Of a DNA stretch of 64,000 nt, positions 5,800-6,537 are shown piece by piece. This DNA comes from Escherichia coli. Lineage in GTDB: Bacteria; Pseudomonadota; Gammaproteobacteria; Enterobacterales; Enterobacteriaceae. Under the pieces are notes generated by a model. That model made no database searches and was not told where the DNA came from. It worked only from the letters and a program-made list of their open reading frames with translations. Every line of letters starts with the position of its first letter. Position 1 is the stretch's first letter. Made by a program: the position numbers and the translations under genes. The stretch lies in assembly GCA_902500055.1 (NCBI GenBank), contig GCA_902500055.1_4131.1. One strand, given 5' to 3'.

Positions 5800-6537
5800 A
5801 TGTTACCTTTTGGAAGAATGGTTAAGTACGGGAATAAAATTGAATATAAGCCACATGGTGAACAATTAATCACGACAATAGGAACAACACAATTTACAGT
5901 TCCTGCTGGCGTTACCGAAATATCAGTATGTGTTATTTCGCCGGGTGGTCAACGTGGTGCTGGTGGCGGCTTATCGTGGCGTAATAATATTCCGGTTACT
6001 AGTGGTGAGTACTTAAGTGTTTCTCTTACACATCCCAACACTACTACACCAGTTGAAAACGGTTTATATCGTGGAACTGAAAAACTATGTGTTAGCTTCA
6101 CTGGTGAATATAGGGTTGGTGGACTAGGTGGGAAAGCTGCTAACGCTATTAATGATGGTGGTGGTAATGGGGGCAACGCTGGTGTAAGTGGTGGTGCAGT
6201 CATTGGTGGTGGTGCTGGTGGCTACACTGGTAAAGGTGGTAACGGAGATGCAATCACTGGTGAAAATGGTGCTGGCGGCGGCGGTGGTGGTGGTGCATTC
6301 TATAATACCTCGTTCATTGGTACGGGTGGTGGTACTGGTATCATTGTTCAAGGTGCTAATGGCATTGGCGGTAGATACGATGGTTCATATAATGGTGGTG
6401 CTGGTAGTGGTGGTGCTGGTAAGATGTATGGTGGTGGTGGTAGTATATGGGATAATTTTTCTTATACGGCTGCTGGTGGTGGTGCTGTGCGAATAATATG
6501 GGGACGTGGGAGATATTATCCTAACAATTCAGTCTAA
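5800..6537 (+). CDS. Array paralog with conserved N-terminus (MLPFGRMVKYGNK) but glycine-rich low-complexity C-terminal domain
   Basis: ORF 245 aa; GGxGG runs from about residue 110; same leader and N-terminal module as RCC1 paralogs. Confidence 0.75.
   Translation: MLPFGRMVKYGNKIEYKPHGEQLITTIGTTQFTVPAGVTEISVCVISPGGQRGAGGGLSWRNNIPVTSGEYLSVSLTHPNTTTPVENGLYRGTEKLCVSFTGEYRVGGLGGKAANAINDGGGNGGNAGVSGGAVIGGGAGGYTGKGGNGDAITGENGAGGGGGGGAFYNTSFIGTGGGTGIIVQGANGIGGRYDGSYNGGAGSGGAGKMYGGGGSIWDNFSYTAAGGGAVRIIWGRGRYYPNNSV
6100..6480 (+). repeat. Low-complexity GGT/GGC-rich coding repeats (Gly-rich domain)
   Basis: Repeated ggtggtgctggtgg-type units in sequence. Confidence 0.6.

Follow-up and report, generated by a model that had tools for sequence, protein, structure and literature searches.

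A short N-terminal peptide common to a glycine-rich protein and its RCC1-like neighbours in an Asteriusvirus jumbo coliphage

N-terminal docking peptides of 7-11 residues have precedent on secondary receptor-binding proteins of phages (PMC6872550), and two reports describe a short N-terminal peptide, common to several virion proteins of one phage, that attaches interchangeable receptor-binding cargo to a common site (PMC6872550; PMC13352976). In cyanophage Pam3, two domains of gp24, one TNF-like and one glycine-rich, have been described as recognising the host receptor (PMC9608196). Here, we compare with these systems a glycine-rich gene (positions 5800-6537, + strand) on a 64,000-nucleotide stretch of DNA filed under Escherichia coli (GenBank assembly GCA_902500055.1, contig GCA_902500055.1_4131.1), referred to below as the window. 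The source of the window is a jumbo coliphage of the genus Asteriusvirus, from the 121Q/phAPEC6/PBECO4 group; its region 5000-8000 resembles 37 phage records, at identities of at most about 98%. The gene stands within an array of RCC1-like genes, with which it shares an N-terminal sequence that we call the tag. Arrays of this kind have already been noted in 121Q-like phages, where they are annotated as 'DNA condensation proteins' with no function given, and existing annotations call the glycine-rich gene hypothetical or 'PE-PGRS', or place it in the wrong frame.

Our preferred reading, to which we give a probability of roughly 0.55, is that the glycine-rich protein consists of an N-terminal virion-docking peptide on a swappable adhesin module. 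The ~12-residue peptide MLPFxR[ML]xxYGN and a short linker would tether the cargo to a common virion site, while the predicted TNF-like beta-sandwich with polyglycine-lattice loops would act as a host-surface binding module, giving a fibre-tip-type adhesin without a fibre shaft of its own. Each array gene would form its own unit of terminator, promoter-like box, ribosome-binding site (RBS) and tag, and recombination between the near-identical cassettes would allow cargo genes to be duplicated or lost, to change their order or to be replaced.

The tag and the proteins that carry it

The open reading frame (ORF) at 5800-6537 encodes 245 amino acids, 70 of them glycine (29%), with GGT as the codon for 50 of these 70. 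Its N-terminus, MLPFGRMVKYGNK, follows the pattern of its RCC1 neighbours, MLPFxR[ML]xxYGN. The corresponding DNA pattern (ATG-YTN-CCN-TTY-N15-TAY-GSN-AAY) opens eight ORFs in the window, at 912, 2115, 3296, 4537, 5800, 6609, 7797 and 9038, and had no match in 100 dinucleotide-preserving shuffles of the window. The other seven tagged ORFs are all RCC1-like (PF25390/PF00415/PF13540; phrog_4219). The original prediction, made from the letters of the window, held that the glycine-rich gene keeps both the leader cassette and the N-terminus of the array, and this is what we find: hairpin, box, RBS and MLPFxR[ML]xxYGN are all shared.

The tag is found well beyond the window. A degenerate DNA pattern of the tag matched 43 stretches in IMG/VR. 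All matches in Rak2-like contigs of 348-378 kb (121Q, CBB, GAP32, Serratia BF and others) stand at ORF starts behind an RBS, and the remaining matches, in short ORFs or at internal sites, look like chance. Eight genes are tagged in the window, 11 in 121Q and 11 in Pectobacterium phage CBB (relaxed tag). When the first 14 residues were removed from 53 tagged proteins, what remained fell into at least nine unrelated cargo clusters, including RCC1, three Kelch (linked to the RCC1 cluster), several Laminin_G_3/ConA-like groups, the glycine-rich proteins and unknowns. One N-terminal peptide is thus present on several different proteins of a single phage, as in docking systems with multiple receptor-binding proteins. 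The suggestion that the first ~13 residues are a tag on interchangeable cargo is therefore supported, and on a wider range of proteins than the window had indicated.

A relaxed scan also recovered Y-A-N variants and a second flavour of the tag, MLPFPIISNTN, which heads two further glycine-rich genes inside the RCC1 array of Serratia phage BF. In Eneladusvirus-like genomes, MLPFPIISNTN or variants of it (MLPFPIISHTT) head many RCC1 genes, often side by side with the Y-G-N flavour within one array. The two flavours may correspond to two docking sites or partners.

The similarity could in principle lie in the DNA alone, with the start of the gene carried along with the leader by duplication or gene conversion, or kept for translation initiation only. 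Within the window, gene conversion is plausible, as the array genes share cassettes of about 80-100% identity and their first four codons are nucleotide-identical in all eight. Elsewhere, however, CBB, GAP32, Serratia BF and metagenomic relatives retain the tag with synonymous changes and behind unrelated leaders, and it persists on RCC1 relatives of only 21-27% identity and at dispersed loci (CBB_144 and CBB_247). The clearest case is CBB_144, an ortholog of the glycine-rich gene with 38% identity, which is located between nrdD and nrdG behind an unrelated leader. Its N-terminus, MLPFSPLIVYGNKI, is encoded with CCG, TTC, TAT and GGA, against CCT, TTT, TAC and GGG in the window. The original prediction had allowed for nucleotide-level carry-over from the leader as the whole explanation; the other synonymous codons, behind another leader and at another locus, go against carry-over as the sole cause. 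Codon use varies among the tags as a whole (P3: CCA 27, CCT 22; Y10: TAC 39, TAT 14; G11: GGG, GGA or GGT). This explanation is already largely refuted, and we regard it as the least credible of those considered here.

Metagenomic relatives of the glycine-rich protein begin with MIPFARIVKYGNEV (P0003, 58% identity), MLPFPIISNTN (P0004) or MLPFPIMIHREN (P0017). In the wider family, most members have other N-termini, so the same cargo carries different N-terminal peptides. Close homologs outside the Rak2-like phages (P0005-P0036) mostly begin with M-[LI]-E-[LM]-L-x-x-[GS], which precedes the folded core by about 12 residues and may represent a further docking peptide, specific to other lineages, on this cargo.

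The tag is poorly ordered in structural models of two unrelated proteins, the glycine-rich protein (below) and an RCC1 paralog. The latter has a predicted local distance difference test score (pLDDT) of 90.5 overall and a mean of 51 over residues 1-10, which lie outside the propeller. We considered whether the tag is a strand that closes the RCC1 propeller, and rejected this given its low confidence, its place outside the modelled propeller and its occurrence on non-propeller folds. A signal peptide or lipoprotein signal was rejected by inspection, as there is no hydrophobic stretch. We found no mention of the tag in the searchable literature, and the papers on fEgEco12, on Sharanji and on comparisons of jumbo phages do not discuss it. 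To the extent that sequence can tell, the N-terminus is a tag conserved at the protein level.

The glycine-rich domain

A homology search with the glycine-rich protein returned 194 homologs, many of them with PF21722 (Gly_rich_2). The conserved core of the family consists of FTVPxGVT, GGGLSWRNNIPVTPGE, NDGGGNGG, GGGAGGYxGNGG and AVRIIWGxGRxFP. Among 69 aligned family members, 20 match PF21722, and the homologs found with the window protein include the PF21722-matching P0038 (E = 1.5e-16, 88% coverage) and P0046 (E = 2.5e-14). PF21722 proteins share GGGLSWRNNIPVTPGE, NDGGGNGG, GGGAGGY and AVRIIWG with the window protein, with homology along the full length, and differ from it at the N-terminus, which in most family members of this type is not MLPF but often M-[LI]-E-[LM]-L. 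The closest relatives of the window protein (P0003, P0010 and CBB_144) fall below the Pfam threshold for PF21722. In PHROGs, the only match is the unnamed family phrog_4474, and a profile search of PDB sequences gave only a chance galectin match (E = 0.083).

We modelled the protein with AlphaFold2 from a 69-sequence alignment from which the CBB sequence was left out. The model has a pLDDT of 93.6 and a predicted template modelling score of 0.89, and confidence falls below 50 only at residues 1-7. It combines a TNF-like beta-sandwich with a stacked lattice of glycine-rich loops, as in the Pam3 gp24 fibre tip, and later strands at residues 215-234 rejoin the sandwich. Matches in BFVD include many phage proteins named 'glycine-rich domain-containing', fibre and baseplate proteins, minor tail proteins, and collagen-like proteins of giant viruses. 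In the 69-homolog alignment, glycine positions are invariant or nearly so across the region that is modelled with high confidence. Given the confident fold and the conserved positions, the glycines in this model build a fold, and are neither a spacer nor a mutable tract.

The glycine-rich gene adds a new member to a fold family that is already known. Its TNF-like domain and its glycine-rich domain resemble those of Pam3 gp24 (PDB 7YPX/7YFW), at an identity of only 16%. In gp24, an N-terminal alpha-helical trimerising domain docks to the baseplate, whereas the model of the window protein shows only the 13-residue tag and a linker (residues 1-19), and no helix, ahead of the sandwich. The tail-tip decorations of phage Bxb1 have the same TNF-like/polyglycine fold, and further close systems are the glycine-rich ligand-binding domain of ALK/LTK and the polyglycine adhesin gp38 of phage S16.

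The original prediction also described long GGxGG runs in place of the RCC1 repeats, and took the GGT/GGC tract to be slippage-prone and hypervariable. The glycine-rich domain is real, but long perfect DNA repeats are missing: the longest perfect period-3 tract in the gene is 13 nucleotides (nt), the longest at any period from 3 to 15 is 29 nt, and Tandem Repeats Finder scores reach only 30-58. Nor is its length variable. By tblastn, the gene is present in 18 Asteriusvirus genomes at 84.7-100% identity and has 245 codons in 16 of them; of the other two, phAPEC6 has one glycine fewer and an UNVERIFIED record (CMSTMSU) is frameshifted. In an alignment of seven orthologs, the missing glycine of phAPEC6, in a G7 run, is the only length change among intact genes. 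The ratio of nonsynonymous to synonymous substitution rates (dN/dS) is 0.27-0.42 for the glycine-rich part in three comparisons with enough substitutions, though counts are small, and 0.34-0.73 overall, a weak estimate from only 4-24 substitutions per comparison. The gene is also the most conserved member of the array: compared with 121Q and phAPEC6, its identity is 98.8-99.2%, and that of the RCC1 members 30-98%.

Some observations do fit a contingency locus, in which GGT/GGC slippage would often change the length of the gene and so diversify the protein or switch it: the shortened G7 run of phAPEC6, a 15-nt unit repeated 1.9 times at 6393-6421, and one Logan contig. The latter (SRR12907740) is metagenome-derived and otherwise about 99.9% identical. 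It has a 99-nt in-frame deletion between 11-nt repeats, which removes 33 codons of the glycine lattice, and a 37-nt deletion between GGGAAT repeats (window 5795-5835), which removes the tag and the RBS spacing. It looks like a natural knock-out of the glycine-rich gene, to judge from its sequence, and the gene may be dispensable in some conditions. Such deletions between short repeats are rare, and do not amount to hypervariability. Set against the stable length, the short perfect repeats, the near-invariant and confidently modelled glycines, the dN/dS of the glycine-rich part and the conservation of the gene relative to its neighbours, a contingency locus is very improbable.

The glycine codons also affect annotation. 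Three ORFs within the tract, at 6188-6496 (+), 5949-6203 (-) and 6124-6351 (-), lie in other frames, encode Val-, Pro- or Thr-rich sequences and are artefacts of the GGT repeats. The annotation of phAPEC6 has one such wrong-frame ORF, gp004, over the glycine tract (phAPEC6 7716-8018), and in the CMSTMSU record a fragment of the gene is labelled as a relative of Mycobacterium PE_PGRS. As a result of wrong-frame annotation, the real protein is missed in annotation and in proteome searches.

Tagged proteins in virions

Tandem mass spectrometry (MS) of CBB virions detected the products of 55 of 554 ORFs (PMC5259590). From the supplement to that study and RefSeq coordinates, we identified the tagged CBB genes as CBB_144, 247, 536, 537 and 548-554. 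Six of the eight proteins with a strict tag were among those detected (hypergeometric P = 1.8e-5), as were nine of the 11 with a relaxed tag (P = 2.4e-8). The glycine-rich CBB_144 is one of them, with 34% of its sequence covered by 5 peptides. The authors of the CBB study singled out six MS-detected structural proteins that have no GAP32 homologs (144, 247, 536, 537, 551 and 552); every one of the six is tagged, and the tagged cluster lies at CBB 350196-355464. They discussed genes that GAP32 lacks as tail-whisker candidates (PMC5259590). In GAP32 itself, gp001, which is structural by MS, begins with MLPFSRIIQYGN.

Two further proteomes agree with this. The phAPEC6 virion proteome holds 8 of 11 RCC1 proteins (PMC7247149), an enrichment with P = 2e-6; the glycine-rich protein could not have been detected there, as its gene had been annotated in the wrong frame. 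A 'PE-PGRS family protein' has been detected by MS in Eneladusvirus virions (PMC7760394). BFVD contains a 265-amino-acid 'PE-PGRS' protein of pEa_SNUABM_47, and a glycine-rich protein of that group, also of 265 amino acids, begins with MLPFPIISHTT; the matching length suggests that the protein detected is this tagged glycine-rich one. The tag is statistically tied to proteins detected in virions by MS. Beyond this association, we infer that the tag causes incorporation into the virion, that the site is on the surface, possibly at the hair-like appendages, and that the cargo binds the host.

Several points weigh against this reading. MS reports co-purification with virions only, several of the tagged proteins were detected at low coverage (1-5 peptides), and two tagged CBB Kelch proteins were missed. 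The CBB supplements contain no N-terminal peptide (MLPF, LPFSPL) that would indicate retention of the tag. The authors of the phAPEC6 study proposed instead that the RCC1 proteins could be builders of the internal body. On the sequence side, the pattern scan fixes the residues searched for, so that conservation of the tag is in part there by construction and only the codons are free. Low pLDDT at protein termini is common, which makes it weak evidence that the tag lies outside the fold, and the window glycine-rich protein has no Pfam match at E <= 0.1 and no NCBIfam match.

The main rival is a T4-like internal location. The tag would then be a capsid-targeting sequence by which diverse cargo is loaded into the prohead as an inner body and ejected into the host, to act in the cell or on DNA. 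The internal proteins of T4 are likewise diverse and polymorphic, and share only a short N-terminal capsid-targeting sequence (PMC3012670). PhAPEC6 does have an inner body, to which the proposal of its authors refers, these phages encode a T4-type prohead protease (phAPEC6 gp227c), and the presence of tagged proteins in virion proteomes is as expected of internal proteins. The cargo folds, however, are of external type (Pam3 fibre tip, Bxb1 tail-tip decorations, ConA-like lectins and beta-propellers). The T4 prohead protease, gp21, cleaves after L/I-x-E, but no conserved Glu site follows the tag: at position 9 of the 53 tags, K occurs 20 times, Q 10 times and E only 8 times, alongside V, N and D, and the window tags have K, D or N. 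The isoelectric points of the tagged proteins, from 4.7 to 9.2 with a median of 7.6, are also not uniformly basic. On balance, we consider an internal location unlikely.

A third possibility is that the tag is read by something other than a site on the virion, such as an assembly chaperone, a modifying enzyme or a degradation or regulation factor, and that the association with virions has another cause. Fibre tips of the same fold can need a dedicated chaperone, as with gp25 of Pam3, and a linear recognition motif would be expected to be short and to lack clear order in the models, as the tag does. We noticed no gp25-like chaperone gene beside the glycine-rich gene, although none was searched for. 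A single folding chaperone is unlikely to serve unrelated folds, and the tag itself is the simplest explanation for the strong enrichment of tagged proteins across three or four independent virion proteomes. This explanation is less probable still than an internal location.

The preferred reading, a docking peptide on a swappable adhesin, may extend to the Rak2-like phages as a group (Asteriusvirus, Mimasvirus, Eneladusvirus and uncultured members). We suggest tentatively, and at somewhat less than even odds, that they possess a plug-and-play display, in which a 12-residue address (MLPFxR[ML]xxYGN or MLPFPIISNTN) brings small binding modules, in a changing set, to a single docking site at the surface of the virion. 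Among these modules would be propellers of the RCC1 and Kelch types, ConA-like lectins and adhesins of the TNF-like/polyglycine type. The phages phAPEC6, 121Q and CBB have hair-like appendages on capsid and tail, and it is a speculation that the tagged proteins may be components or tips of these 'hairy' structures. This would give a testable candidate composition for them.

Together, the breadth of the tag, its occurrence in virion proteomes and the fibre-tip fold of the glycine-rich protein recast the locus as a set of swappable, virion-borne binding modules rather than chromatin-like proteins. If the plug-and-play reading is true, a foreign protein should need no more than the first 15-20 residues to be displayed on these phages, and a tag that works on a reporter would provide a short display or targeting tag for jumbo phage engineering.

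Array organisation and known docking systems

The coordinates of the glycine-rich gene's features and of its array are collected in Table 1. The hairpin of the intergenic cassette has the arms GCCAGTAC-NNN-GTACTGGC followed by a T-run, the conserved box reads GTATTAAATATAGTATAAT, and the RBS reads AAAGGAGG. A promoter role of the box is suggested by its position and conservation; a scan for sigma-70 promoters was uninformative (31 sites against 46.8 expected). With a hairpin before and after it, the glycine-rich gene appears to be a separate transcription unit, and in the record of phage G17 both equivalent hairpins are annotated as terminators.

Table 1. Positions of the tag, domains, repeats and expression signals of the glycine-rich gene and of its array in the window
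Feature	Position	Strand	Remarks
Array of tag-bearing genes	912..11468	+	7 RCC1-like, 1 glycine-rich, split degenerate RCC1 copy at 10304-11468
Intrinsic-terminator-like hairpin GCCAGTACAGAGTACTGGC and T-run	5734..5763	+	Ends upstream RCC1 gene; first cassette element
AT-rich promoter-like box GTATTAAATATATTATAAT, TATAAT at 5777-5782	5764..5782	+	Near-identical 5' of 7 array members (alignment)
RBS AAAGGAGGG	5787..5795	+	4 nt ahead of ATG
N-terminal tag, residues 1-13, MLPFGRMVKYGNK (core M-L-P-F-x-R-[ML]-x-x-Y-G-N)	5800..5838	+	Motif scan; low model confidence
Linker, residues 14-19 (IEYKPH), from tag to folded core	5839..5856	+	Block 11-20 mean pLDDT 73; first strand from residue 20
Most strands of predicted TNF-like beta-sandwich, ~residues 20-105, motifs FTVPxGVT and GGGLSWRNNIPVTxGE	5857..6114	+	Boundary approximate
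Predicted polyglycine-lattice region and C-terminal strand, residues 106-245	6115..6534	+	NDGGGNGG, GGGAGGYTGKGGNG, AVRIIWG motif (residues 229-235)
11-nt direct repeat GTGGTGGTGCA, first copy	6188..6198	+	Flanks 99-nt in-frame deletion in one Logan contig
Codons of GAGGGGGGGA run	6267..6295	+	Sole length-variable site among intact orthologs
11-nt direct repeat GTGGTGGTGCA, second copy	6287..6297	+	Other flank of 99-nt deletion
Terminator-like hairpin and T-run 3' of glycine-rich gene	6545..6574	+	Opens next cassette

Two array members depart from this layout. Gene 2115 starts 9 nt past the stop of gene 912, lacks the hairpin and the promoter-like box, and has a weaker AGGAG site (2105-2115), for which reasons it is probably co-transcribed with gene 912, unlike the other members. 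The last member (10304-11468) is split into a 78-amino-acid ORF with a degenerate tag, MLPFGRIITSSKKN, and a 298-amino-acid RCC1 ORF in another frame; its leader has diverged, with the hairpin retained and a different promoter-like box and RBS. It looks like a decaying or frameshifted copy.

The order and content of the array differ among the window, 121Q and phAPEC6, and the changes fall between genes. When window positions 1-12000 were compared with phAPEC6, three genes that follow the glycine-rich gene in phAPEC6 had no counterpart in the window. The order of the orthologs of 912 and 2115 is swapped between the window and its close relatives (121Q/phAPEC6), and several window array members are only 30-37% identical to their best counterpart in these phages. 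Between fEgEco12 and a relative with 97% average nucleotide identity, the largest differences include two 'chromosome condensation regulators'.

Beyond the array, seven consecutive small hydrophobic ORFs of 104-141 amino acids (window 12154-14593, - strand) resemble a paralogous membrane-protein array, and next to them lies a 257-amino-acid ORF with the P-loop-like motif GKGGVGKT (14661-15434, - strand). The tagged-gene cluster of CBB lies beside an AAA gene and several 'membrane protein' genes in a row. This neighbourhood of membrane-protein genes and a P-loop/AAA gene may be conserved between the window and CBB.

Among known N-terminal docking and targeting peptides, the tag system appears to be a new variant. 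The docking peptides of the Klebsiella KP32/KP34, K1-5/SP6-like and K64-1/RaK2 systems follow the same short-peptide logic with other sequences. Cargo in those systems consists of trimeric depolymerase spikes, whereas the cargo here is made up of small globular propellers, lectins and glycine-rich proteins, and the tagged genes, unlike those systems, form arrays of separate transcription units, some of them away from the tail-fibre cluster. The internal proteins of T4 are similar in another respect: there too, an address of about 10 residues at the N-terminus is shared by diverse, unrelated proteins encoded at polymorphic loci, and delivers them into the virion. The T4 capsid-targeting sequence differs in its Glu cleavage site, which has no conserved equivalent in the tag, and the cargo of the tag has folds typical of external adhesins.

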